Below, piece by piece: positions 8,454-21,515 of a stretch of 64,000 bases of DNA. The notes beneath the pieces are model-generated. The model saw only the letters and a program-made list of their open reading frames with translations, had not been told where the DNA came from and did not search any database. Position 1 is the stretch's first letter. Each line of letters starts with the position of its first letter. The position numbers and the translations under genes were made by a program. The stretch lies in the UHGV virus genome UHGV-0073881. One strand, 5' to 3'. This DNA comes from a virus.

Positions 8454-9151
8454 TCGTTCACCATTGCGTTGTAAAACTGTCTTTGAATTTCTTCAGCAAT
8501 TTGATGAGGTGTCAAACCAGCTTTCAGCATCATTCTCACGGTGTATTCAATATTTCCGTGGTTTACTACTCTGTCAGCGATAAAGGCAGCCTCTTTAAAC
8601 TCTTCAGCTTTCTTCTTAGCGTCTTCACATGCCCCTGTCAAGAGGGAAGAAAACTTTTTATGTGGTGGTAACCAATGATGGTGTGGATTGTTGGAAGTAA
8701 ATGCTTTGAAGAACTCTCCAACATGGTCAACAACTCTTGAATCTCCACCTTTTACATTCAGTTCTGTGGTGTAACGGTTTTCATGCTTTGGTAAATCTTC
8801 AATCTGAAGAATCTTATGAGTAGGCTCAATAGTCACGTCTACAGAACGAATCTTTGGAGTTGTCTGAGATTCTTCGTGACGAATGAACAGAATGTCTTTA
8901 AACTGCCCTGTGAACTGACCACTTGAGTACTCATCAGTAGAGTAGATGATACCTGCGTGTAACACTCCGAGAGTACCTTGTGGGTTATGTCGATAATCTT
9001 TAAACATCAGTTTCTTAAGTGGTCTGAAAAAGATACGCCCAGATTCTGCTACGTGCGTAATCTCAGCCTGAGTAGAATCTTGACCATTGTAACGGTTTCC
9101 TAAAGAAACCTGAATAGTAATCTTGTCACCAGCTTTTGGTTTAGTGTTCAT
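8450..9151 (-). CDS. hypothetical protein (about 233 aa)
   Basis: ORF track 8450-9166; start moved to ATG with GAGGA RBS (MNTKPK). Confidence 0.6.
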   Translation of the reverse strand: MNTKPKAGDKITIQVSLGNRYNGQDSTQAEITHVAESGRIFFRPLKKLMFKDYRHNPQGTLGVLHAGIIYSTDEYSSGQFTGQFKDILFIRHEESQTTPKIRSVDVTIEPTHKILQIEDLPKHENRYTTELNVKGGDSRVVDHVGEFFKAFTSNNPHHHWLPPHKKFSSLLTGACEDAKKKAEEFKEAAFIADRVVNHGNIEYTVRMMLKAGLTPHQIAEEIQRQFYNAMVNE

Positions 9152-9224
9152 TTTCTTTCCTCGCATATGAAAAAGGGAACTACCTTTCGATAGTTCCCAT
9201 GTTATACGTTTTTATGTATCACTG

Positions 9225-9827
9225 TCAAGTGTGTTTTTTAGGCAGTAATGCACTTCTTTTATCCCTGACATTATCAAGAATACCAATAAAGGTATCTTTA
9301 GCACCTTTCCAAGGGCTGAAGTCTGGGATGTACTCTCGAATTCCTTCGATAACAACCTTCAAAGCATTGTTCTTCATCCACCAATCAGGACTTGAAGCAG
9401 ACATGACATAGAACTGTTTATCGTCTGTCAAAATAGGTTCTTCAGTCATCGGTGAGATGTAAGTTGTAACAACTGCACCACTATTCATGTAGTAAGTACG
9501 TTTTGTAACCTTACTCAATGTTTTGTGCAGGTCTGCAAACAGTGTCACAACATCTTTGTGGTCAATGTCTTTTTCAAGGTCGATACGATACTTCAATAGA
9601 GCCTCATCAACCTCTTTATCAGTAAACTTGAAGTACTGCACCTCATCAATAAGGCAAACAGACACGTTGTTTACGTTAAAGGTTTGTTTAACAACCTTTG
9701 CAGGTGACGTTATAGTTGGCTGAAAAGCTGCAATCAGACCTTCAATGTTTCCGTAGAAACTTACAAGCTGAACTTGAGGCTGTTGAATGTACTCATCAGG
9801 GGCATTTTTATTTTCTATTTCTGACAT
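9225..9827 (-). CDS. hypothetical protein (200 aa)
   Basis: ORF track; ATG start. Confidence 0.6.
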   Translation of the reverse strand: MSEIENKNAPDEYIQQPQVQLVSFYGNIEGLIAAFQPTITSPAKVVKQTFNVNNVSVCLIDEVQYFKFTDKEVDEALLKYRIDLEKDIDHKDVVTLFADLHKTLSKVTKRTYYMNSGAVVTTYISPMTEEPILTDDKQFYVMSASSPDWWMKNNALKVVIEGIREYIPDFSPWKGAKDTFIGILDNVRDKRSALLPKKHT

Positions 9828-14454: not shown

Positions 14455-15870
14455 ATGAGCGAATTATTTGACCACTCAAACCTTCATCAAGGTCGTACTG
14501 AAAATGGTGCTGTAAACCACACCTCTTCAATGTCAGCCTCGGTAGACTTCTACAAAGCTGCTGGCTCTAGCCGCAACTACGTAGAGAAACTTCCAAATCT
14601 TTTCTACAAAGCTTTACGGGAAGATATTGATGTTGCTGTACGAATCCTGCTTCATATGCGAGATGCACGAGAAGGTATGGGTGAGCGTAAAGCGTTCAGA
14701 ACTGTTTTGACTGAATCCATCAAAAGCAACATCCTAGACTCTTTCCAAGTTCTACGTATCATGGAAAAGATTTCTGAACTAGGCCGTTATGATGACTTTA
14801 AAATCTTCGTAGGTACTCGATACGAAACAGATGCTTTCAAACAACTTGAAGCAGCACTGTTAGACCCTAACACTGCACAGTTAGCTGCAAAGTGGTTGCC
14901 AAGGGTTAAGCGTCGTCATATGAACTTTGTAAACCGCTTCTGTAAGTTTGCAAAGCTAAGTCAGAAAGAGTACCGACTGTTACTGTCAGCCTTGTCTGAT
15001 ACGGTTGAGCAGAAGATTTCTGCAAATGCTTTTGGAGAGATTGATTACAGTAAAATCCCTTCACTGGCTGCTGCACGTTACCAGAAGCTTTTCGGTCGTA
15101 AAGATGGTGAGCGTTACAAAGCATACATTGAAGCTCTTACTAAAGGTGAGACCAAGATTAATGCTGGTGCAGTTTACCCATACGATGTGATTAAGTCAGT
15201 AAATTACGGAAACGCTACAGTTGCCAATGAACAATGGAAAGCTTTATCAAACTGGATGGCAGATGGTGAAAACATTCTCTGCATGACAGACGTATCAAGC
15301 TCTATGACTTGGGAAAGACACGGTGCAGTTACTGCTTTAGATATTGGTATGTCTCTTGCATTATACGTCGCAGAACGCAACACAGGTTGTTTTAAAGATG
15401 AGTTAATGGTTTACTCCAGCAGACCTCACTTTATTACACTGAGTGGAGATTTAGCACAACGTAAGCGTCAGGTAATGTCTCATGTTGAGTATGGTTCAAC
15501 TAACCTTCAAGCAGCATTTGACAGAATTCTTGAAATTGGTGTTAAAAATGGCTTGACACAAGAAGCTATGCCAAGTAAGCTTATTATCTTCTCTGATATG
15601 GAATTCAATCAGGTTGATGGTGCAAATGGTCTTACTAACTTTGAAGCAATTCAGAGTAAGTACAAAAAAGCTGGATATGAGATGCCACAACTGGTATTCT
15701 GGTACTTAGCTGACCGTAACGGTAATTGCGAAGTATCTGTAAAGGATAACGGAGTAGCAATGGTTTCAGGTTTCTCTCCAGCCACCTTAAAAGCTTTGCT
15801 TGGTGGTGAGAAGTTTGACCCTATCAGCGTAATGCTCAAAGCAGTAATGATTGAACGCTACGATTGGTAA
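14455..15870 (+). CDS. vWA-domain protein with Ro60/TROVE-like architecture (471 aa)
   Basis: C-terminal vWA with MIDAS motif DVSSSM, GSTN and IIFSDMEF segments; order and spacing resemble the Ro60 C-terminal half; N-terminal 270 aa helical domain unassigned. Confidence 0.7.
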   Translation: MSELFDHSNLHQGRTENGAVNHTSSMSASVDFYKAAGSSRNYVEKLPNLFYKALREDIDVAVRILLHMRDAREGMGERKAFRTVLTESIKSNILDSFQVLRIMEKISELGRYDDFKIFVGTRYETDAFKQLEAALLDPNTAQLAAKWLPRVKRRHMNFVNRFCKFAKLSQKEYRLLLSALSDTVEQKISANAFGEIDYSKIPSLAAARYQKLFGRKDGERYKAYIEALTKGETKINAGAVYPYDVIKSVNYGNATVANEQWKALSNWMADGENILCMTDVSSSMTWERHGAVTALDIGMSLALYVAERNTGCFKDELMVYSSRPHFITLSGDLAQRKRQVMSHVEYGSTNLQAAFDRILEIGVKNGLTQEAMPSKLIIFSDMEFNQVDGANGLTNFEAIQSKYKKAGYEMPQLVFWYLADRNGNCEVSVKDNGVAMVSGFSPATLKALLGGEKFDPISVMLKAVMIERYDW

Positions 15871-15888: not shown

Positions 15889-15917
15889 TTGACAAAGTGT
15901 TTAATACCCTTTAATAT
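15889..15917 (+). promoter_or_regulatory. sigma70-like promoter upstream of tRNA array (TTGACA-N17-TAATAT)
   Basis: -35 TTGACA 15889-15894, 17-nt spacer, -10 TAATAT 15912-15917; inside a hairpin AGGGTATT/AATACCCT. Confidence 0.5.
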
Positions 15918-15978
15918 GTTCTACATAGAAACGAAAAAGAAGTTTTCTGAAATAAATCAAATTATTTTAAAAAACCTC

Positions 15979-16008
15979 TTGACAAACACTAAAAAATAGT
16001 GTTATAGT
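15979..16008 (+). promoter_or_regulatory. sigma70-like promoter upstream of tRNA array (TTGACA-N17-TTATAG)
   Basis: -35 TTGACA 15979-15984, -10 TTATAGT at 16002-16008, about 28 nt before first tRNA. Confidence 0.5.
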
Positions 16009-16035
16009 TGTTACATAGGTTGTTAAAAAGATTAT

Positions 16036-16112
16036 CTCTGTTTAGCTCAGTTTGGTAGAGCGTTCCGTTTGGGGCGGTAAGGCCAGAGGTTCAAGTCCTC
16101 TAACAGAGACCA
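16036..16112 (+). tRNA. tRNA-Pro (anticodon TGG), isotype tentative
   Basis: acceptor CTCTGTT/AACAGAG, D-stem GCTC/GAGC, T-arm AGAGG-TTCAAGT-CCTCT, anticodon loop TTTGGGG, CCA encoded. Confidence 0.7.
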
Positions 16113-16119
16113 AATTAAT

Positions 16120-16194
16120 GTCGTAGAAGGCAAATGGTTAGCCACCTGACCTTCAATCAGTTGCTCGCGGGTTCGAATCCCGTCTACGACTCCA
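16120..16194 (+). tRNA. tRNA, anticodon TTC (Glu?), isotype uncertain
   Basis: acceptor GTCGTAG/CTACGAC, T-arm GCGGG-TTCGAAT-CCCGT, CCA encoded; anticodon loop CCTTCAA has C at position 33. Confidence 0.6.
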
Positions 16195-16200
16195 AATTTG

Positions 16201-16269
16201 ACAGAAGACCAAATACAGCAAACAACTTTTACTTTTCGCGCATAGAAAACATAAAAAGCTTGGTCTGGT
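16201..16269 (+). repeat. tRNA-array spacer module A (ACAGAAGACC ... ACAGCAA ... GGTCTGGT)
   Basis: conserved 5-prime ACAGAAGACC and 3-prime GGTCTGGT ends with AT-rich core; 4 copies in array. Confidence 0.6.
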
Positions 16270-16279
16270 CATTAAGAAT

Positions 16280-16356
16280 TGCGGGTATAGAGAAAGGGCG
16301 TCTCACATGTCTCATTAGCATGGTATCGGTAGGTTCGACTCCTGCACCCGCCTCCA
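16280..16356 (+). tRNA. tRNA-Met-like (anticodon CAT)
   Basis: acceptor TGCGGGT/ACCCGCC (1:72 mismatch), T-arm GTAGG-TTCGACT-CCTGC, loop CTCATTA, CCA encoded; weak D-stem. Confidence 0.6.
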
Positions 16357-16361
16357 AATTT

Positions 16362-16425
16362 ACAGAAGACCGTTTACAGCAATTCAAACAATTTTATCGG
16401 AAAATTAAAATGAATACGGTCTGGT
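16362..16425 (+). repeat. tRNA-array spacer module B
   Basis: ACAGAAGACCGTTTACAGCAA ... ACGGTCTGGT. Confidence 0.6.
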
Positions 16426-16437
16426 AATGTTAAACAT

Positions 16438-16514
16438 GGTTAGGAAGCACATAAGGCATGTGCGGTCGGCTGTTAACCGAATGGCACAGGGTTCGAATCC
16501 CTGACTAACCGCCA
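16438..16514 (+). tRNA. tRNA-Asn (anticodon GTT)
   Basis: acceptor GGTTAGG/ACTAACC, D-stem GCAC/GTGC, T-arm CAGGG-TTCGAAT-CCCTG, loop CTGTTAA, CCA encoded. Confidence 0.75.
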
Positions 16515-16524
16515 AAATTTAAAT

Positions 16525-16612
16525 GCGTCGTTATCCCGTAGATGGAAGCGGTGGTGACTGTAAATCACTTGTCATTACGACTCGGTAGGTTCGACTCCTT
16601 CACGGCGCACCA
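16525..16612 (+). tRNA. tRNA-Tyr (anticodon GTA), class II with long variable arm
   Basis: 88 nt; acceptor GCGTCGT/ACGGCGC, anticodon stem GGTGA/TCACT loop CTGTAAA, T-loop TTCGACT, CCA encoded. Confidence 0.7.
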
Positions 16613-16618
16613 AATAAA

Positions 16619-16696
16619 GGTTATGTAGTTTAATCTGGTTAAAATACCTCCCTGTCACGGAGGAAGATGTGGGTTCGAATCCCATCGTAACCGCCA
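16619..16696 (+). tRNA. tRNA-Asp (anticodon GTC)
   Basis: acceptor GGTTATG/CGTAACC, anticodon stem CCTCC/GGAGG loop CTGTCAC, T-arm GTGGG-TTCGAAT-CCCAT, CCA encoded. Confidence 0.75.
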
Positions 16697-16754
16697 ATTT
16701 TGAGAAGGGCTTTTTAGCCCCTCCCTTAAAGAGTTCTTGCGAGTATTCTTTAAA

Positions 16755-16835
16755 GGAGCAGAAGACCAAATTCAGCAAGCAACAAAAATATTTCAAGCCA
16801 ATTAATTTGAAAAATTTAAAACTTGGTCTGGTTCC
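16755..16835 (+). repeat. tRNA-array spacer module C
   Basis: GCAGAAGACCAAATTCAGCAA ... CTTGGTCTGGT. Confidence 0.55.
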
Positions 16836-16844
16836 AACAAATTT

Positions 16845-16969
16845 ACAGAAGACCGTTTACAGCAAGTTAAACAATCTAATTCTCTATGAAAGAAAGGGCG
16901 AAGGTTCGATTCCTTCACACGTTACGGCGTGTTGGTGTAATGGCAGCACTTAAGATGATACGGTCTGGT
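16845..16969 (+). repeat. tRNA-array spacer module D, carrying a tRNA-like T-arm and acceptor-like hairpin
   Basis: ACAGAAGACCGTTTACAGCAA ... GAAGG-TTCGATT-CCTTC (16900-16916), ACACG-TTACGG-CGTGT hairpin (16917-16932) ... ACGGTCTGGT; no full cloverleaf. Confidence 0.55.
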
Positions 16970-17118
16970 AATCCTCTTTGCAGTGACTTATGGAGCTAAT
17001 ATATCGTCCCATGAGTGCCGATGAATCTCTTGAGCATGATTCTAGATTAGCTTACTAAGAGATGACTCTACAAACCCTTTAGCAAGGTTTGCGTAGGTTA
17101 CTGCAAAGATGATTTAAT

Positions 17119-17194
17119 GGAAGTGTAGCAGAATGGTGATGCGGCAGACTTTTAATCTGACAGGCGATGGGTTCGAATCCCTCCACTTCTACCA
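17119..17194 (+). tRNA. tRNA-Lys (anticodon TTT)
   Basis: acceptor GGAAGTG/CACTTCT, anticodon loop CTTTTAA, T-loop TTCGAAT, CCA encoded. Confidence 0.7.
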
Positions 17195-17279
17195 AATTCG
17201 CCCTTAATTGAAGAATACCTACTTCGCGGCTGGAAACACCCACGAAAAATCAATTCTTCTCCAAAGGGCAACTTATTAC

Positions 17280-17356
17280 GGTTCAGTCGCAGATAAGGTA
17301 ATGCAAGGGTTTCATAAGCCCTATGAATGTGGGTTCGACTCCCATCTGAACCTCCA
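17280..17356 (+). tRNA. tRNA with anticodon CAT (Met or Ile2)
   Basis: acceptor GGTTCAG/CTGAACC, anticodon stem AGGGT/GCCCT loop TTCATAA, T-arm GTGGG-TTCGACT-CCCAT, CCA encoded. Confidence 0.75.
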
Positions 17357-17358
17357 AT

Positions 17359-17433
17359 TGTGGGTTAGCATAAATGGTAATGCAAACGGCTGATAACCGT
17401 TAGAAGAGGGTTCGATACCCTCACCTACAACCA
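17359..17433 (+). tRNA. tRNA-Ile (anticodon GAT)
   Basis: acceptor TGTGGGT/ACCTACA, D-stem GCA/TGC, anticodon stem AACGG/CCGTT loop CTGATAA, T-arm GAGGG-TTCGATA-CCCTC, CCA encoded. Confidence 0.75.
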
Positions 17434-17448
17434 ATTCCAATAAAGTTG

Positions 17449-17477
17449 TTGACATTAACATGTGACCACTTTATAGT
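17449..17477 (+). promoter_or_regulatory. strong sigma70-like promoter inside tRNA array (TTGACA-N17-TATAGT)
   Basis: -35 TTGACA 17449-17454, 17-nt spacer, -10 TATAGT 17472-17477; followed by about 320 nt with no ORF and no canonical tRNA. Confidence 0.55.
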
Positions 17478-17801
17478 AACTAAAATACTTCATAATATGT
17501 ATAATTCAAACACCAATACATGAGCGTTAGACGTAACACAATGTGGGGAAATTTGTTGTACATATTCTGAATAGTTTTCGTTAGTGTAGCGTCTATTTTG
17601 CAAACTTAAAAATAAATGCAAACGATAATGTTTTTCTGGCAGTAGCTTAATAGGCTAAACACCAGTGAGGTCTTCCAATCCCTCATCAAAGAATTTGGCG
17701 TACTAGCCCACGGTATGATTAATAAAGTGGGCGACATTCTAAAGGGTATCCCTTATGGGGCTTGGCTTAAATGCAATGAGTACCCTTTAAAATGTTAATT
17801 A

Positions 17802-17883
17802 CGGGGCGTATCTCAGCGGTCTTCTAAACCGCCGTTAACCGAGTAAGTGGAGTATGCGGGTTCGAGTCCTGCCGCCTCGACCA
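17802..17883 (+). tRNA. atypical tRNA-like gene (Arg TCT-like anticodon arm), possible pseudogene
   Basis: acceptor CGGGGCG/CGCCTCG, T-arm GCGGG-TTCGAGT-CCTGC, CCA encoded; stem GCGGT/ACCGC with loop CTTCTAA but no canonical D-arm and a 23-nt segment before the T-arm. Confidence 0.4.
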
Positions 17884-17898
17884 ATTTTGGATGAAATC

Positions 17899-18246
17899 AT
17901 GAAGACTTGTATTAGGTGCAAACTTAGCAAGGATGAAAATGATTTCTACATGAAAGATGGTAGGAGAACTCATTCATACTGTAAAAAGTGTGTTAATGAG
18001 CAAACCATAGAAAGACAAAGAGCACTTAAACTTTCAGCTGTTGAGTACAAAGGTGGGGTTTGTCATGATTGTGGTAAAAGGTATCATCCAGCAGTGTATG
18101 ACTTCCATCATTTGAATCCTTCAGAGAAAGATTTTAACATTGGTCATAGAAAAAGTCTTAAGTTCTCTCAGGAGCTAAAGAACGAACTTGACAAATGTGT
18201 TTTGCTATGTTCAAATTGCCATAGGGTAAGACATGCAAAGTATTAG
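17899..18246 (+). CDS. HNH endonuclease (zinc-finger plus HNH) embedded in tRNA array
   Basis: CxxC...CxxC and FHHLNPSEKD...LLCSNCHRVRH motifs; ORF track 17854 start lies inside the tRNA, so start moved to ATG 17899. Confidence 0.8.
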   Translation: MKTCIRCKLSKDENDFYMKDGRRTHSYCKKCVNEQTIERQRALKLSAVEYKGGVCHDCGKRYHPAVYDFHHLNPSEKDFNIGHRKSLKFSQELKNELDKCVLLCSNCHRVRHAKY

Positions 18247-18383
18247 TTAGCAGATTGCTTAGACGACCTTAACGGGTCTCCTGTAAGGAGGTGGTCTGTA
18301 TCTCATGTTTCCAGAGCATGTAAAAATATTCTGAGAAGGGGCTTTACAGTGTTGTGATAATACGGTAAGCTTCGAATTATAAT

Positions 18384-18466
18384 ATGGGACGATGTTAAGA
18401 CTCTAAGGCATGAGCAACGGCTTCCAACACCGTTTCAAAGGGGTTCAACTCCTCCGTCCCATGCCA
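18384..18466 (+). tRNA. tRNA, possibly Trp (anticodon CCA); atypical
   Basis: acceptor ATGGGAC/GTCCCAT, T-loop TTCAACT, CCA encoded; stem AACGG/CCGTT around TTCCAAC; extra nucleotides between acceptor and D region. Confidence 0.45.
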
Positions 18467-18478
18467 AAGTCTTATTAG

Positions 18479-18567
18479 GGGTAGGTAGCGGCTAATGGTA
18501 GCCAAACTGTCTTGAAAACAGTTGCCACTGTAGAGATACGGTGAGGGTTCGACTCCTTTACTTACCG
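18479..18567 (+). tRNA. tRNA-Ser (anticodon TGA), class II
   Basis: acceptor GGTAGGT/ACTTACC, D-stem GGC/GCC, anticodon stem ACTGT/ACAGT loop CTTGAAA, long variable arm, T-loop TTCGACT; CCA not encoded. Confidence 0.7.
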
Positions 18568-18817
18568 CCTAATAAGATTTAAAGCCGCGCTTCGTTCGGA
18601 TGTTGCGTTAGGTTTCACTTCGTGTATTGTCGTACACGATGTTGAGAAAGCACCTAGTAGGTGTCACGGAGAAGAGATAGCATCAAGCTCTCCAAAGGTT
18701 CTAGTCACCGGATTAAACAAGACTATGCAAAGACTGATTAGGTCTTTTTAGATAACTTCTGAGGCAAACTATACCATTGTTGCTTTGGGTCTTGGAAGTT
18801 CTCTACAAAGATTTAAT

Positions 18818-18894
18818 GCACCTATAGCCCAATTGGAAGAGGCAGCAGACTTAGAATCTGTTCAGTGTGAGTTCGACTCTCTCTAGGTGTACCA
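18818..18894 (+). tRNA. tRNA with anticodon TAG (Leu-type anticodon, class I length)
   Basis: acceptor GCACCTA/TAGGTGT, D-arm CCCAATTGGAAGAGG, anticodon stem GCAGA/TCTGT loop CTTAGAA, T-loop TTCGACT, CCA encoded. Confidence 0.6.
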
Positions 18895-18901
18895 AATTAA
18901 T

Positions 18902-18977
18902 GCAGGTGTAGCAAAATGGTTATGCGGCTGACTCTTAATCAGTAAGACGATGGGTTCAATTCCCTCCACCTGTACCA
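18902..18977 (+). tRNA. tRNA with anticodon CTT (Lys?)
   Basis: acceptor GCAGGTG/CACCTGT, anticodon stem GCTGA/TCAGT loop CTCTTAA, T-loop TTCAATT, CCA encoded. Confidence 0.6.
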
Positions 18978-18983
18978 AACATT

Positions 18984-19059
18984 GGGGATGTAGTTTACAT
19001 GGTTAAAACATAAGTTTTGCAAACTTAAGTACAGGGTTCAATTCCATGCTTCTCCACCA
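18984..19059 (+). tRNA. tRNA-Ala (anticodon TGC)
   Basis: acceptor GGGGATG/CTTCTCC with G3:U70 identity pair, anticodon stem TAAGT/ACTTA loop TTTGCAA, T-loop TTCAATT, CCA encoded. Confidence 0.75.
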
Positions 19060-19065
19060 ATTAGT

Positions 19066-19140
19066 GCATCCATAGTTTAAACGGGAAAATTACAGTCTTC
19101 CAAACTGAGGTTGAGGGTTCGATTCCCTCTGGATGCTCCA
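19066..19140 (+). tRNA. tRNA-Gly (anticodon TCC)
   Basis: acceptor GCATCCA/TGGATGC, T-arm GAGGG-TTCGATT-CCCTC, anticodon loop CTTCCAA, CCA encoded. Confidence 0.75.
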
Positions 19141-19146
19141 ATTCAT

Positions 19147-19222
19147 GCTCCTATCGTATAACTGGCTATTACGGTTGTCTTGTAAGCAACTTATCAGGGT
19201 TCGAATCCTTGTGGGAGCACCA
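19147..19222 (+). tRNA. tRNA-Thr (anticodon TGT)
   Basis: acceptor GCTCCTA/TGGGAGC, D-stem CGTA/TACG, anticodon stem GTTGT/GCAAC loop CTTGTAA, T-arm CAGGG-TTCGAAT-CCTTG, CCA encoded. Confidence 0.7.
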
Positions 19223-19316
19223 ATTTGAGGTCAAGTGAAAGACCGCTTGAGTCAACTGAAGACCGTAACAAATTCCACGGAGTTGAGTTAGCGGCACAAC
19301 TTCAGACCTCTTTAAA

Positions 19317-19391
19317 GCTCGCTTAGTTTATATGGTAAAGCCCCATCCTTACAAGTTGGTGAAGAAGGTTCAAGTCCTTCAGCGAGTACCA
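19317..19391 (+). tRNA. tRNA-Val (anticodon TAC)
   Basis: acceptor GCTCGCT/AGCGAGT, T-arm GAAGG-TTCAAGT-CCTTC, anticodon loop CTTACAA, CCA encoded. Confidence 0.7.
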
Positions 19392-19392
19392 A

Positions 19393-19470
19393 GTTCCAGT
19401 ATCCCAATTGGCAGAGGATGCAAGCTCAAACCTTGTATTAGTGACGGTTCGAATCCGTCTTGGAACACCA
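19393..19470 (+). tRNA. tRNA with anticodon CAA (Leu-type anticodon, class I length)
   Basis: acceptor GTTCCAG/TTGGAAC, D-stem ATCC/GGAT with loop CAATTGGCAGA, anticodon stem GCAAG/CTTGT loop CTCAAAC, T-arm GACGG-TTCGAAT-CCGTC, CCA encoded. Confidence 0.65.
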
Positions 19471-19487
19471 AATTTTAGGAGATTCCT

Positions 19488-19700
19488 ATGAAGCCTTATG
19501 GTAGACACGGTAAAGTTGAAATTGCAAGTTGTGGTTGCTGTGCTTCTCACGATGGTGAAGAAGATTACTACAAGTGGCGTACAGACCATCGTAGACGCTT
19601 TCTCAGAAGAGATAAGAAGAAAGCTAGACAGGAATCTCGAAAAGATATTGCAGAATTAGTTCAAATGGATAGAGCAGCAACCTACGAAGTTGTTAGTTAG
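19488..19700 (+). CDS. hypothetical small basic protein (70 aa); 3-prime end overlaps tRNA-Arg
   Basis: ORF track; RBS AGGAG 7 nt before ATG; last 50 nt overlap the tRNA at 19650. Confidence 0.35.
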   Translation: MKPYGRHGKVEIASCGCCASHDGEEDYYKWRTDHRRRFLRRDKKKARQESRKDIAELVQMDRAATYEVVS

Positions 19701-19723
19701 GGGTTCGAATCCCTTATTCTGCA
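19650..19723 (+). tRNA. tRNA-Arg (anticodon ACG)
   Basis: acceptor GCAGAAT/ATTCTGC, D-stem GTTC/GAGC, anticodon stem GCAAC/GTTGT loop CTACGAA, T-arm AGGGG-TTCGAAT-CCCTT; CCA not encoded. Confidence 0.75.
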
Positions 19724-19744
19724 CAAATTTTAGAAGGTAATTAT

Positions 19745-19972
19745 ATGCGTAAACTCATTATTGAAAGGCATAAAGATGCTGACAAGATTGAAACAACACA
19801 AGTTGGGGACACTGACTTCATTCTTGTAGGTTGGAAATGTGACCCAATAGCAGCTATGAAGGTTGTTCATGGTTTTGCAGGAATTGAATTTAATCAAATC
19901 ATATTTGAAACGCTATTACCAGAAAATCAGGATACGTGTAATAACGCATATATCCTGACAAGAGTTCGTTAG
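19745..19972 (+). CDS. hypothetical protein (75 aa) between tRNA genes
   Basis: ORF track; ATG start; stop abuts tRNA-Gln. Confidence 0.4.
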   Translation: MRKLIIERHKDADKIETTQVGDTDFILVGWKCDPIAAMKVVHGFAGIEFNQIIFETLLPENQDTCNNAYILTRVR

Positions 19973-20046
19973 GGGATTAGTTTACAAGGTTAAAACCTCG
20001 GTCTTTGAAATCGAAGAAGTTGGTTCAATTCCAACATCCCCCGCCA
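19971..20046 (+). tRNA. tRNA-Gln (anticodon TTG)
   Basis: acceptor AGGGGAT/ATCCCCC (1:72 mismatch), anticodon stem TCGGT/ATCGA loop CTTTGAA, T-arm GTTGG-TTCAATT-CCAAC, CCA encoded. Confidence 0.7.
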
Positions 20047-20048
20047 AT

Positions 20049-20127
20049 GCTCCATTACTCCAATTGGCAGAGAGGCCAGACTTAAAATCTGTGTTATGTA
20101 TCGGTTCGAATCCGATATGGAGTACCA
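20049..20127 (+). tRNA. tRNA with anticodon TAA (Leu-type anticodon, class I length)
   Basis: acceptor GCTCCAT/ATGGAGT, D-arm CCAATTGGCAGAG, anticodon loop CTTAAAA, T-arm ATCGG-TTCGAAT-CCGAT, CCA encoded. Confidence 0.65.
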
Positions 20128-20133
20128 AATATT

Positions 20134-20209
20134 AGCAGTGTAGCATAACTGGCAATGCTCCAGCCTCTGAAGCTGAAAGATTAAGGTTCAAATCCTTACA
20201 CTGCTGCCA
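20134..20209 (+). tRNA. tRNA with anticodon CTG (Gln)
   Basis: acceptor AGCAGTG/CACTGCT, D-stem GCAT/ATGC, anticodon loop CTCTGAA, T-arm TTAAG-GTTCAAAT-CCTTA, CCA encoded. Confidence 0.65.
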
Positions 20210-20240
20210 CTTCTAAGGGTTCTTACGAGAGTCCTTAAAT

Positions 20241-20317
20241 GTGGCCTTATCATAAATGGATAATGACCCATGCTGTGAACATGGTCTATACGGGTTCGAT
20301 TCCCGTAGGTCACCCCA
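20241..20317 (+). tRNA. tRNA-His (anticodon GTG)
   Basis: acceptor GTGGCCT/AGGTCAC with C73, D-stem TCAT/ATGA, anticodon stem CCATG/CATGG loop CTGTGAA, T-arm ACGGG-TTCGATT-CCCGT, CCA encoded. Confidence 0.75.
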
Positions 20318-20324
20318 ATTTTAA

Positions 20325-20401
20325 TAGCTCAATTAGCTTATATGGTTAAAGCGCGTGTCTGAAAAACATGAGAACAGGGTTCAAATCCCGATGGGCTACC
20401 A
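20325..20401 (+). tRNA. tRNA-Phe (anticodon GAA), irregular acceptor/D junction
   Basis: anticodon stem CGTGT/ACATG loop CTGAAAA, D-stem GCTT/AAGC, acceptor TAGCTCA/TGGGCTA, T-loop TTCAAAT, CCA at 20399-20401. Confidence 0.6.
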
Positions 20402-20417
20402 ACTTTATAGGTGCATA

Positions 20418-21152
20418 ATGAAAGAGATGACAGGACAAGGTAAAGAGATTTTCAATCTCCTTAAATCCGGTAACGGGTTCTCTAACCCTCTTATTACTGG
20501 TGCAGCAGTTCTTGGTGGTACAGTTGCTGCTTCTCAGTCATTAATCACTTCAATTAGTTCTGTATCAGACCCAGCTACCCAGCAAATCCTTATTGCTGCT
20601 GGCTTGACAACTGCCTTACTAAGCAGCTTTACAACAAGCCTTGGTAGCACCACTTCAACGACAACTACTTTAACTGACTATGGACAGAAGTCTGTAGATG
20701 AGTTTTCACAGCGTATGCAGGTAGCCAAAGGATACTCTAATGTTATGGGAGCAGCGGGTGAACAAGTTGGATGTACACCGTTTAGTGGAATCATGGGAGT
20801 TGCTACTGAATACGGTAACAAGGCTATGGATTTGATTAACACCTCCATAGATGCCGTAAACAGCGTTCTAAGCGACTTACAGGATGCAATTGATAAAGGA
20901 CTAGCAACCATCTCTGACCTCGCTACACAAGCTGTTACAGCGATTAATGAAGGTATGGCAAAGATTACTGCCTACGCTAATGAAGTGGCTCAGATGATTG
21001 CAGACGAAGCAGCAATGATTGCAGAGTATCTAAAAACCAATATTAATGGTTTCCTTGCAAATGTTTTACCAGATTGGTTTAACGATGATTGTAAGACGGG
21101 TGTAATTGATACAATTGCAACTCCAGAGATGAAAGAAGCTCTAAACAAATAA
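20418..21152 (+). CDS. hypothetical Ala/Ser/Thr-rich protein embedded in tRNA operon (about 244 aa)
   Basis: ORF track 20355-21152; start moved to first ATG after tRNA-Phe (MKEMTGQ) with AGGTG RBS. Confidence 0.6.
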   Translation: MKEMTGQGKEIFNLLKSGNGFSNPLITGAAVLGGTVAASQSLITSISSVSDPATQQILIAAGLTTALLSSFTTSLGSTTSTTTTLTDYGQKSVDEFSQRMQVAKGYSNVMGAAGEQVGCTPFSGIMGVATEYGNKAMDLINTSIDAVNSVLSDLQDAIDKGLATISDLATQAVTAINEGMAKITAYANEVAQMIADEAAMIAEYLKTNINGFLANVLPDWFNDDCKTGVIDTIATPEMKEALNK

Positions 21153-21155
21153 TTT

Positions 21156-21248
21156 GGAAGATTAACCCTAAAAGGTAAGGGAGCAGTTTGCTAAACTGCC
21201 AGTAGCTGAGAAATTGGTGTACCAGTTCAAGTCTGGTATCTTCCTCCA
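21156..21248 (+). tRNA. tRNA-Ser (anticodon GCT), class II
   Basis: 93 nt; acceptor GGAAGAT/ATCTTCC, D-stem CCC/GGG, anticodon stem GCAGT/ACTGC loop TTGCTAA, long variable arm, T-arm ACCAG-TTCAAGT-CTGGT, CCA encoded. Confidence 0.75.
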
Positions 21249-21254
21249 AATTTT

Positions 21255-21330
21255 GCATTGGTGTCAGAAATGGATATGTACCTGTCTGCAAAACAGGTTT
21301 ATGAGGGTTCGAGTCCCTTCCAATGCTCCA
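21255..21330 (+). tRNA. tRNA-Cys (anticodon GCA)
   Basis: acceptor GCATTGG/CCAATGC, anticodon stem CCTGT/ACAGG loop CTGCAAA, T-arm GAGGG-TTCGAGT-CCCTT, CCA encoded. Confidence 0.8.
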
Positions 21331-21364
21331 ATTTACTTTAATATCTCTCTCTCAAAGTATATAT

Positions 21365-21426
21365 GCCCTGCTATGAGTATTCTCCCTTTCGCTACCGGAG
21401 AGTATTTTTAGACAGGGCTTTTTTAT
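21365..21426 (+). terminator. terminator-like nested hairpin after tRNA array
   Basis: outer stem GCCCTG...CAGGGC followed by TTTTTTAT; inner CTCC/GGAG hairpin; large loop. Confidence 0.4.
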
Positions 21427-21490
21427 AGAGTTATACTTTATAGGAAAGACCTATACAGTATGTCTCTGACATACATTGTGGTTTCTCCTT

Positions 21491-21515
21491 GACGGTCTCT
21501 GCGCCGTCTTTTTTC
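21491..21515 (+). terminator. rho-independent terminator
   Basis: stem GACGG/CCGTC, loop TCTCTGCG, then TTTTTTC. Confidence 0.6.

Follow-up and report, generated by a model that had tools for sequence, protein, structure and literature searches.

We analyzed a 64,000-nt stretch of viral DNA (UHGV virus genome UHGV-0073881, hereafter the window), which belongs to a Felix O1-like myovirus (Felixounavirus), and identified within its tRNA array an RNA gene that, on comparative sequence evidence, is a conserved phage RNA module derived from transfer-messenger RNA (tmRNA, or SsrA) rather than a tRNA-like small RNA. The module is arranged in the order promoter, optional hairpin, 28-40 nt segment antisense to the host tmRNA gene ssrA, A-rich linker, tag reading frame with helix 5, two pseudoknots (PK2 and PK3), and terminal hairpin, and its core, as conserved in BLAST comparisons, spans about 17572-17735. 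The 5′ part of this core is a putative trans-acting antisense segment, complementary to host tmRNA beyond chance, and the phage RNA may block or re-program host ribosome rescue.

The tag reading frame occupies 17618-17653 on the plus strand (GCA AAC GAU AAU GUU UUU CUG GCA GUA GCU), encodes ANDNVFLAVA, and is followed by UAA UAG. It begins at the GCA resume codon and comprises ten codons without a start codon, and an in-frame UAG lies upstream at 17582-17584. The A-rich linker that precedes it (17600-17617, plus strand) ends in AUAAAU, which abuts the resume codon and agrees with the resume consensus used by ARAGORN; the context AUAAAUGCAAACGA is nearly invariant. The ten-codon length is kept in all 125 copies examined, whose tags include ANDDVVLMAA, ANEEMYLAVA, and ANDEQFLAVA as well as ANDNVFLAVA. 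In an alignment of the core from 103 distinct sequences, on which the counts of this kind below are based, the 33-nt tag frame contains zero indels, and the entropy by codon position is 5.4, 4.4, and 9.5, the third position being about twice as variable as the first and second. Codon 10 is GCC, GCU, GCG, or GCA, that is, Ala in every sequence; codon 11 is UAA (94 sequences), UGA (7), or UAG (2); and frame 0 is open in 102 of the 103, the other two frames being closed in 99 and 73. As a negative control, 26 chance pattern matches in bacterial genomes had no such frame. These features point to a tag frame that is decoded and under protein-level selection. An AUG overlapping the resume codon was considered as a start and rejected: it yields non-conserved peptides of 5-9 aa, its frame is mostly closed, and a T5-like copy has no AUG. 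One divergent copy, in the Klebsiella T5-like phage GArcari-2022a (contig L129, 668-842; contigs are designated here by L numbers), has a premature UAG in the tag (ANDN-stop-YLAVA-stop), reads AUAACU rather than AUAAAU ahead of the resume codon, and keeps the motifs GUUUUCG and GCGAC.

The same coding signature would fit a tag translated outside trans-translation (e.g., by structure-driven internal entry), with a free decapeptide of the ssrA type as a competitor for SspB, ClpX, or ClpA, and the tag does keep a host-like AND/ANE N-terminus and has, in the SspB register, an aromatic or hydrophobic residue. We regard this as very improbable: the frame has neither a start codon nor a Shine-Dalgarno sequence, the in-frame stop lies upstream, the codon two positions upstream varies (AUA, ACA, or GUA), there is no known bacterial mechanism for such entry, and the antisense segment would be left unexplained. 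The initial annotation had described some 320 nt with no open reading frame (ORF) and no canonical tRNA. This stands as far as conserved ORFs and tRNAs are concerned: the ORFs on either strand encode 25-43 aa only (some GenBank records annotate minus-strand small ORFs of the region as hypothetical proteins), and no tRNA was found in 17434-17801, between the flanking tRNA-Ile (17359-17433) and a weak Rfam match at 17802-17880, by ARAGORN or by Rfam, even at E ≤ 10. What that description passed over is the tmRNA-type tag reading frame.

The predicted fold of the RNA is also conserved. The minimum free energy (MFE) of the 318-nt transcript is -82.2 kcal/mol, against -67.1 +/- 5.1 kcal/mol for shuffles (z = -2.98), and the covariation score of the alignment is 0.269, compared with 0.140 in shuffles (none of 500 as high) and at most 0.103 in slid controls. 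The outer helix of helix 5, both stems of PK2 (S1 and S2), and S1 of PK3 are 97-99.7% paired and show compensatory changes. Helix 5 (17636-17665, plus strand) is formed by CUGG (17636-17639) with CCAG (17662-17665) and by UAGC (17643-17646) with GCUA (17654-17657), with the stop codons in the loop; its outer helix is 97% paired, with double changes at all four pairs (e.g., GC in 61 and AU in 38). PK2 (17666-17698, plus strand) is an H-type pseudoknot in which S1 pairs UGAGG (17666-17670) with CCUCA (17681-17685) and S2 pairs CCAA (17675-17678) with UUGG (17695-17698); these stems are 98.6 and 99.5% paired, respectively, with three compensatory pairs in each. PK3 (17701-17732, plus strand), also of H type, has S1 of UAC (17701-17703) with GUA (17713-17715) and S2 of GCCCAC (17706-17711) with GUGGGC (17727-17732), and its loop UGAUUAAUAA is near-invariant. 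S1 of PK3 is 99.7% paired (CG80/UA11/GC12), and S2 was counted as only 59% paired because the alignment register lowers the count; by eye its changes are compensatory (GCCC/GGGC, GGGAG/CUCCC, and CCCUGAG/CAGGG).

These helices account for the motifs on which a tRNA-like small RNA had initially been proposed. All of the quoted motifs could be located: the supposed D-arm, TAGCTTAATAGGCTA at 17643-17657, is in fact tmRNA helix 5 with stop codons in its loop, and the supposed T-arm, GAGGTCTTCCAATCCCTC at 17667-17684, is S1 of PK2, whose loop pairs downstream and both of whose stems covary. No cloverleaf with an acceptor stem and T-loop is formed, both motifs belonging instead to helix 5 and PK2, and the tRNA-like reading is thereby set aside. 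The long stem that had also been noted is real, with AAAGGGTA and TACCCTT inside a 15-bp helix of 17734-17748 with 17781-17795 that closes the terminal hairpin. Covariance analysis across relatives, which had been suggested as a check, was carried out here, and the helices covary.

Two hairpins flank the core. The upstream one (U1, 17489-17571, plus strand) pairs AAUAUGUAUAA at 17494-17504 with UUGUACAUAUU at 17554-17564 in the MFE structure and is optional: about 88 nt corresponding to it are absent from five Felix-like contigs (L020, L024, L097, L103, and L106), and U1 alone (query 65-146) matches phages 4HA13 and Bp7. The downstream one (U2, 17734-17795, plus strand) consists of the 15-bp stem ACAUUCUAAAGGGUA with UACCCUUUAAAAUGU and a 32-nt insert. 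A homologous stem occurs elsewhere in phages as CACAACAGGUAAGAGCA with UGCUCUUUCCGUUGUG, with compensatory changes and a variable insert; in lambdoid contig L007 the insert of U2 is found again, 5′ of the module, and relatives of the UAB_Phi87 type keep the stem with a short loop. Re-pairing of the flanking helices with each other (a/a′), which would recreate the tmRNA topology, was ruled out in this window because the strands of U1 and U2 pair only with their own partners, both in the MFE structure and by inspection. A PK1-like fold can be drawn upstream of the resume codon, in the same segment that is antisense to host ssrA; at 69% paired, and not conserved in short-type variants, a PK1 pseudoknot at this position is poorly supported.

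Comparisons with tmRNA models recover the coding part of tmRNA. In E-value mode, Rfam matches 17529-17659 to tmRNA_permuted at 22.6 bits and to tmRNA at 13.6 bits, both below the threshold of 47 for each, and the tmRNA matches cover the mRNA-like domain (MLD) only. ARAGORN at a relaxed threshold finds the resume consensus and the tag ANDNVFLAVA with its two stops, and the tRNA-like domain (TLD) that it reports is the neighboring tRNA-Ile and is spurious. The profile hidden Markov model of the module matches genuine two-piece tmRNAs from helix 5 into PK2, and these matches support descent from the tmRNA coding region. No TLD in cis (a 7-bp acceptor stem with G3:U70, a T-arm, and a 3′ CCA) was found in a search set comprising the window, Felix O1, HK620, PhiSH19, SP-058, KP591P1, and phiEa104; default ARAGORN was negative for the window and Felix O1. 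A canonical or permuted TLD was rejected, since the only TLDs returned by ARAGORN (run at several thresholds) and by Rfam (in E-value mode) were spurious ones taken from neighboring tRNAs. Promoters abut the module in several lineages, N4-like copies of the module end at a terminator, and lambdoid copies start right after the Q-dependent late-promoter terminator. The upstream hairpin unit was rejected as a permuted acceptor junction, lambdoid copies having only this late-promoter terminator upstream, with no T-arm or CCA. The permuted gene order (acceptor piece, intervening loop, and coding piece from GGGG) is absent upstream of the module in the lambdoid, sipho-, Erwinia, and Felix-like copies. 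A complete permuted (two-piece) tmRNA with the tag ANDTAWALQA is present at 9125-9469 of viral contig L070 (64 kb, 38% G+C); its PK2 and PK3, including the GAUUAAUAA loop, resemble those of the enterobacterial phage module, of which it may be a TLD-bearing relative. In a blastn search of the L070 tmRNA against isolated phages, only its T-arm region matched other phage tmRNAs.

An ordinary, complete phage ssrA gene has been reported for such phages, in that the genome announcements of Moogle and Felix O1 each mention an ARAGORN tmRNA or 'ssrA' in one line (PMC4319497, PMC4392139), and default ARAGORN does call a permuted tmRNA in the Felix-like contig L106. That call, however, spans 749 nt and includes parts of neighboring tRNAs, and the 'ssrA' reports for Felix O1-like phages are explained by ARAGORN calls that borrow neighboring tRNAs in this manner; the default calls are negative for Felix O1 and the window, and the relaxed-threshold TLD is a tRNA-Ile. 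Furthermore, an exhaustive curated tmRNA survey lists no enterobacterial phage tmRNA (PMC4131195), while phage Mushroom, reported to be without tmRNA, carries the region at 89% identity. We therefore give an ordinary complete tmRNA hardly any credence, and the literature is corrected in two respects: the Felix O1-like 'ssrA' is an incomplete tmRNA, and its reported absence from some relatives is a detection artifact.

The position that PK1 holds in tmRNA is taken in the module by the antisense segment. In the window this segment, UAGUUUUCGUUAGUGUAGCGUCUAUUUU (17572-17599, plus strand), contains the family-invariant GUUUUCG and is an imperfect reverse complement of nts 81-106 of E. coli tmRNA, which hold the A-rich upstream element and resume codon together with tag codons 1-6. 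The host target sequence used was that of E. coli ssrA only. The antisense alignment scores 27, which none of 500 shuffles reached, against a best sense score of 20 elsewhere, and the predicted duplex with host tmRNA has an energy of -25 to -26 kcal/mol. Across the family, each variant has 28-40 nt at its 5′ end that align with the reverse complement of ssrA 68-108 (10 of 10 family variants, p ≤ 0.004); this region takes in the loop and 3′ strand of PK1 together with the A-rich element, the resume codon, and codons 1-6 of the tag. Lineages keep differing subsets of one antisense template, in blocks that correspond to host nts 97-105, 87-91, 75-81, and 67-73. Predicted duplexes with the E. coli MLD window range from -25 to -32 kcal/mol and are better than those with all 138 control MLD windows, and in 103 of 103 sequences the 5′ segment is predicted to prefer the host MLD over its own (median -33.6 vs. 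-17.9 kcal/mol). Sense alignments to ssrA are weak, with scores of 12-20 at scattered sites, and the alternative that the 5′ GUUUUCG is a homolog of the tmRNA D-loop analog GGAUUCGAC was rejected on this basis.

We give somewhat less than even weight to the proposal that the antisense segment anneals the phage RNA to host tmRNA, covering the tag template of the host and presenting that of the phage instead. The single-stranded 5′ segment would pair with the host MLD from the 3′ strand of host PK1 through the resume codon to the sixth tag codon. This pairing would, as a first step, hide the host tag template, and would, as a second, leave the phage RNA tethered to host tmRNA-SmpB, the source of an alanyl TLD. 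The phage resume codon would exit 16-21 nt from the intermolecular helix, which is about the distance of the host codon from PK1. Ribosome rescue would then continue with nascent chains receiving a phage tag (...LAVA or ...LMAA) rather than the host tag (...ALAA), and the one-piece tmRNA of the host would be turned into a two-piece tmRNA with a phage coding piece. A supply of tRNA-like function by host Ala-tmRNA-SmpB would reconcile the decoded tag frame with the missing TLD. The fuller claim, that the phage coding piece hijacks host tmRNA by pairing with its MLD, silences the host template, supplies its own to ribosomes already entered by host Ala-tmRNA-SmpB, and decides the degradation tag of rescued proteins, is held more tentatively, as possible but doubtful. 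If true, this would be the first case of trans-translation being taken over at the RNA level, and the first tmRNA in nature built from host and viral RNAs.

Several observations weigh against this reading. Because a perfect 10-nt complement between RNAs of this size turns up in about 6% of shuffles, what carries the case is a match that runs colinearly over several blocks and has been retained by every lineage. Wobble-compatible substitutions are not in excess in the segment (6 compatible vs. 7 disruptive transition states), and the conserved blocks could be kept for another reason. The host target is invariant in the sequences examined, leaving no covariation between seed and target to read. 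In this window, an 88-nt hairpin precedes the antisense segment, which is not the 5′ end of the transcript. The tmRNA of Salmonella reads GAA ACC (tag ANDETYALAA), which would introduce one mismatch in the best block; with the AAC-to-ACC (Salmonella-type) change modeled, the duplex is weakened yet still predicted at -22 to -37 kcal/mol. Pairing with tmRNA, the template swap, and use of the phage tag are each predicted steps. To our knowledge, there is no precedent for loading of an MLD that is only base-paired to the MLD of another tmRNA.

The main rival in our ranking keeps the pairing and drops the tag: the RNA would be an antisense inhibitor only, an anti-tmRNA sponge that blocks or destabilizes host tmRNA (e.g., through RNase III), with the rest serving as a scaffold or decoy and the tag unused. 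The same complementarity to the host MLD supports it, as does contig L129, in which GUUUUCG and GCGAC are kept despite the premature UAG in the tag. The codon-position pattern, the always-Ala codon 10, the interchange of stop codons, and the indel-free frame open in 102 of 103 sequences indicate decoding, however, and a conserved resume context would be needless for a scaffold; we consider inhibition alone unlikely.

As in the one-piece tmRNA of Enterobacterales (RF00023), the module has a GCA resume codon without a start, an A-rich upstream element, a stop loop in helix 5, and downstream pseudoknots, and its tags match the E. coli tag ANDENYALAA in encoded length, in their AN(D/E) start, and in their Ala end. 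Unlike the one-piece tmRNA, it lacks the acceptor stem, T-arm, CCA, and helix 2, has two downstream pseudoknots only, carries a segment antisense to host ssrA at the PK1 position, and is phage-borne, with its own promoter, a location in tRNA islands or late leaders, and a sub-threshold Rfam score. Its best Rfam similarity is to the two-piece permuted tmRNAs of alpha-proteobacteria and others (RF04321, RF01849), which have a resume context similar to AUAAAUGCAAACGA and in which, as proposed for the module, the coding piece is a separate RNA relying on pairing with an acceptor RNA. In contrast to two-piece tmRNA genes, the module has no upstream CCA-ending acceptor piece, GGGG acceptor strand, or helix 2, and its proposed partner is intact host tmRNA, paired at the MLD rather than through the acceptor stem and helix 2. 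Reduction in the opposite direction is known: TLD-only tmRNA derivatives occur in jakobid mitochondria. Mycobacteriophage DS6A also carries a TLD-only tmRNA derivative, which was proposed to disrupt host trans-translation by titration of SmpB (PMC4131195). The module resembles that of DS6A in being a reduced tmRNA derivative on a phage, and is its reciprocal in that it has lost the TLD but retains the pseudoknots and the tag template. Phage-encoded RNAs that act on host RNAs include AgvB and AsxR, anti-small RNAs of E. coli O157 prophages that are short, Hfq-dependent sponges for GcvB and FnrS. Like these, the module is a phage or prophage RNA predicted to pair with a host non-coding RNA and neutralize it; unlike them, its predicted target is tmRNA, and it carries a translatable tag template and pseudoknots. 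The literature searched contained no account of a phage tmRNA module without a TLD, nor of an RNA directed against tmRNA, and the module is a tmRNA derivative whose mode of action may be new.

Bacteria rely on trans-translation as their main pathway of ribosome rescue and quality control, and lambda-immP22 hybrids, Mu, and P22 depend on it. If the proposed activity is true, phages manipulate trans-translation through an RNA, and the MLD can work, or interfere, apart from its TLD. It would also explain an unannotated conserved block in hundreds of therapeutic-candidate phages (Felix O1-like, ViI-like, and N4-like) and in the complete E. coli genomes that carry it.

The module was found in hundreds of unrelated phages and prophages, exclusively of Enterobacterales (646 phage records), and a pattern scan of IMG/VR returned at least 120 loci. 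The core is found in HK620, where Q and the late promoter precede it, and in other lambdoids; in ViI-like Ackermannviridae and N4-like Schitoviridae; in 45-48-kb siphophages of Klebsiella, Salmonella, and E. coli; and in Erwinia Ounavirinae and one T5-like Klebsiella phage. The HK620-type region is present, unannotated, in 157 of 5426 complete E. coli genomes (about 3%), including O26 enterohemorrhagic E. coli prophages, and among species-representative genomes true copies occur only in Enterobacterales, in six other species besides E. coli. Hosts of prophage copies include Rosenbergiella, Erwinia phyllosphaerae, Pantoea eucrina, Rouxiella, Pseudocitrobacter, Klebsiella, and Salmonella. The core is thus kept across myo-, sipho-, and podophages and lambdoid prophages with differing neighbors. 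In the window, the 368-nt stretch that separates tRNA-Ile from the next tRNA-like element shares 96.5-96.7% identity with Felix O1 and with E. coli O157 phages, SME50 among them.

A promoter of the sigma-70 type (TTGACA-N17-TATAGT, 17449-17477, plus strand) precedes the module, with TTGACA at 17449-17454, a 17-nt spacer, and TATAGT at 17472-17477; transcription would start near 17484. It had been described as the best promoter in the array, and does match the consensus at 11/12 positions; within 15900-21500, however, it is tied with a site at the head of the array (15979-16008). As a class, promoter-like sites are not enriched here (9 found vs. 11.1 expected by chance), so that support for this promoter comes from conservation. 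The same promoter is kept, at 96-97% identity, in Felix O1 and relatives, and the Felix O1 genome paper had predicted it as 'P45, 25600-25628', named for the downstream HNH gene (PMC3185647). In the five Felix-like contigs that lack U1, the same -10 box lies immediately 5′ of GTTTTCG; unrelated phages have promoters of their own (TTGACA-N17-TAGATT or TAATCT) at the equivalent site, directly before the conserved RNA; and in at least five contexts a promoter abuts the module.

These data bear on whether the region is a non-functional remnant, either a tmRNA fragment undergoing decay or simply a 5′ leader belonging to the tRNA-like and HNH genes that follow. The missing TLD and the sub-threshold Rfam score (22.6 vs. 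47 bits) would fit decay, and the promoter could also serve the downstream tRNA-like element and HNH ORF (17899-18246), the latter having given 'P45' its name. The retention of the core across phage types with differing neighbors, the covarying helices, the selected tag, and the promoters directly abutting the module in several lineages all speak against it, and we find a remnant most improbable. A leader processed from a downstream tRNA, which had been named as the case that would overturn the small-RNA candidate, is similarly countered by recurrence of the core with the downstream tRNA different or absent, and sometimes with a terminator following. The small-RNA candidate itself is upheld, as a conserved, structured, non-protein-coding RNA gene rather than a spacer or leader.

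Immediately downstream of the module is a D-armless tRNA-like RNA, here termed B (17802-17883, plus strand), which is a neighbor and not an obligate part of it. B has a 7-bp acceptor stem, a 7-nt connector (UAUCUCA) in place of the D arm, a covarying anticodon stem, the anticodon loop CUUCUAA (UCU), G3:U70, A73, CCA, and a 23-nt variable region. Its homologs occur in the jumbo phage PBECO4, a phi92-like phage, KpS8, and a T5-like phage, where they are annotated as 'tRNA-Undet' or 'tRNA-OTHER'; the loop and the 23-nt variable region are invariant among them, and the alanine identity pair is present in four of five phage families. In a split phage tmRNA, the acceptor would come from such a phage tRNA-like RNA (B, or hairpin units with a T-arm), either as an unprocessed fusion or as a separate partner. 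B, with its alanine identity pair and no D stem, is indeed TLD-like, T-arm units flank the module in KP591P1, L051, L009, L014, L128, and ViI-like phages, and in L070 similar forms of PK2 and PK3 belong to a genuine permuted tmRNA. B and the module are nevertheless distributed independently (B alone in PBECO4, phi92-like, KpS8, and T5-like phages; the module without B in HK620 and others), and sister Felix-like phages have a canonical tRNA-Arg(UCU) where the window has B, for which reasons B was rejected as an obligate partner. No complementarity that would join B and the module was found, and the cross-pairing of flanking helices is excluded in this window, where U1 and U2 self-pair only. We judge a split phage tmRNA to be distinctly improbable, and prefer host tmRNA as the partner of the module.

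The HNH endonuclease ORF directly 3′ of B encodes the pattern CxxC...HH...CxxCH and has no Pfam match at E ≤ 0.01; such an ORF also lies 3′ of B in the T5-like phage Roth50 (L136, 698-1207). The HNH ORF following B and the tRNA-Arg(UCU) of sister phages suggest a homing cassette by which the tRNA-Arg gene is exchanged for a divergent allele resistant to cleavage. In the Felix O1 paper it is noted that the frequent AGA codon lacks a tRNA (PMC3185647); if B is an AGA decoder with alanine identity, this would be remarkable.

Modular hairpin units flank the module in many phages, with swappable inserts and a long, conserved closing helix of the consensus GGUAAGAGCAUU ... GUGCUCUUUCC(G/A). In addition to 17489-17571 and 17734-17795 of the window, they were seen in L007, L012, L023, L051, L009, L004, and L128, and some inserts hold a T-arm (GGUUCGAAUCC) and resemble D-armless mini-tRNAs. 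The long forms of lambdoid phages and siphophages have a third, terminal unit closed by UGUGGUG ... CACCACA (HK620, L001, 1740-1830; also L004, L016, L051, and L082). This unit has a degenerate T-arm (GCCGGAGAUCAGCACCGGC), which in some contigs is the canonical GCCGGUUCGAUUCCGGC followed by CGCCACAACC(A), and the unit resembles a tRNA in decay. Uncalled tRNA-like fragments with good T-arms also adjoin the module in PhiSH19 (L002, 1640-1850), as GGGG...GGGUUCGACUCCC...GGCUCCACA with a G3:U70-like start, and in phiEa104 (L125, 600-660), as GGGGCGACAAUAGGUCGUGGAGAGGUUCGAAUCC...UCGCCA; the motif GAGUAAG is common to both fragments and B.

In the array as a whole, ARAGORN called 23 tRNAs, to which Rfam adds, besides its weak match to B, a tRNA at 16120-16191 (53.7 bits) between tRNA-Pro and tRNA-Met. 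A large ORF just upstream of the array (14455-15870) contains DUF2828 and DUF7788 with a DxSxS-like motif (DVSSSM), and an ORF inside the array (20355-21152) contains DUF7217.

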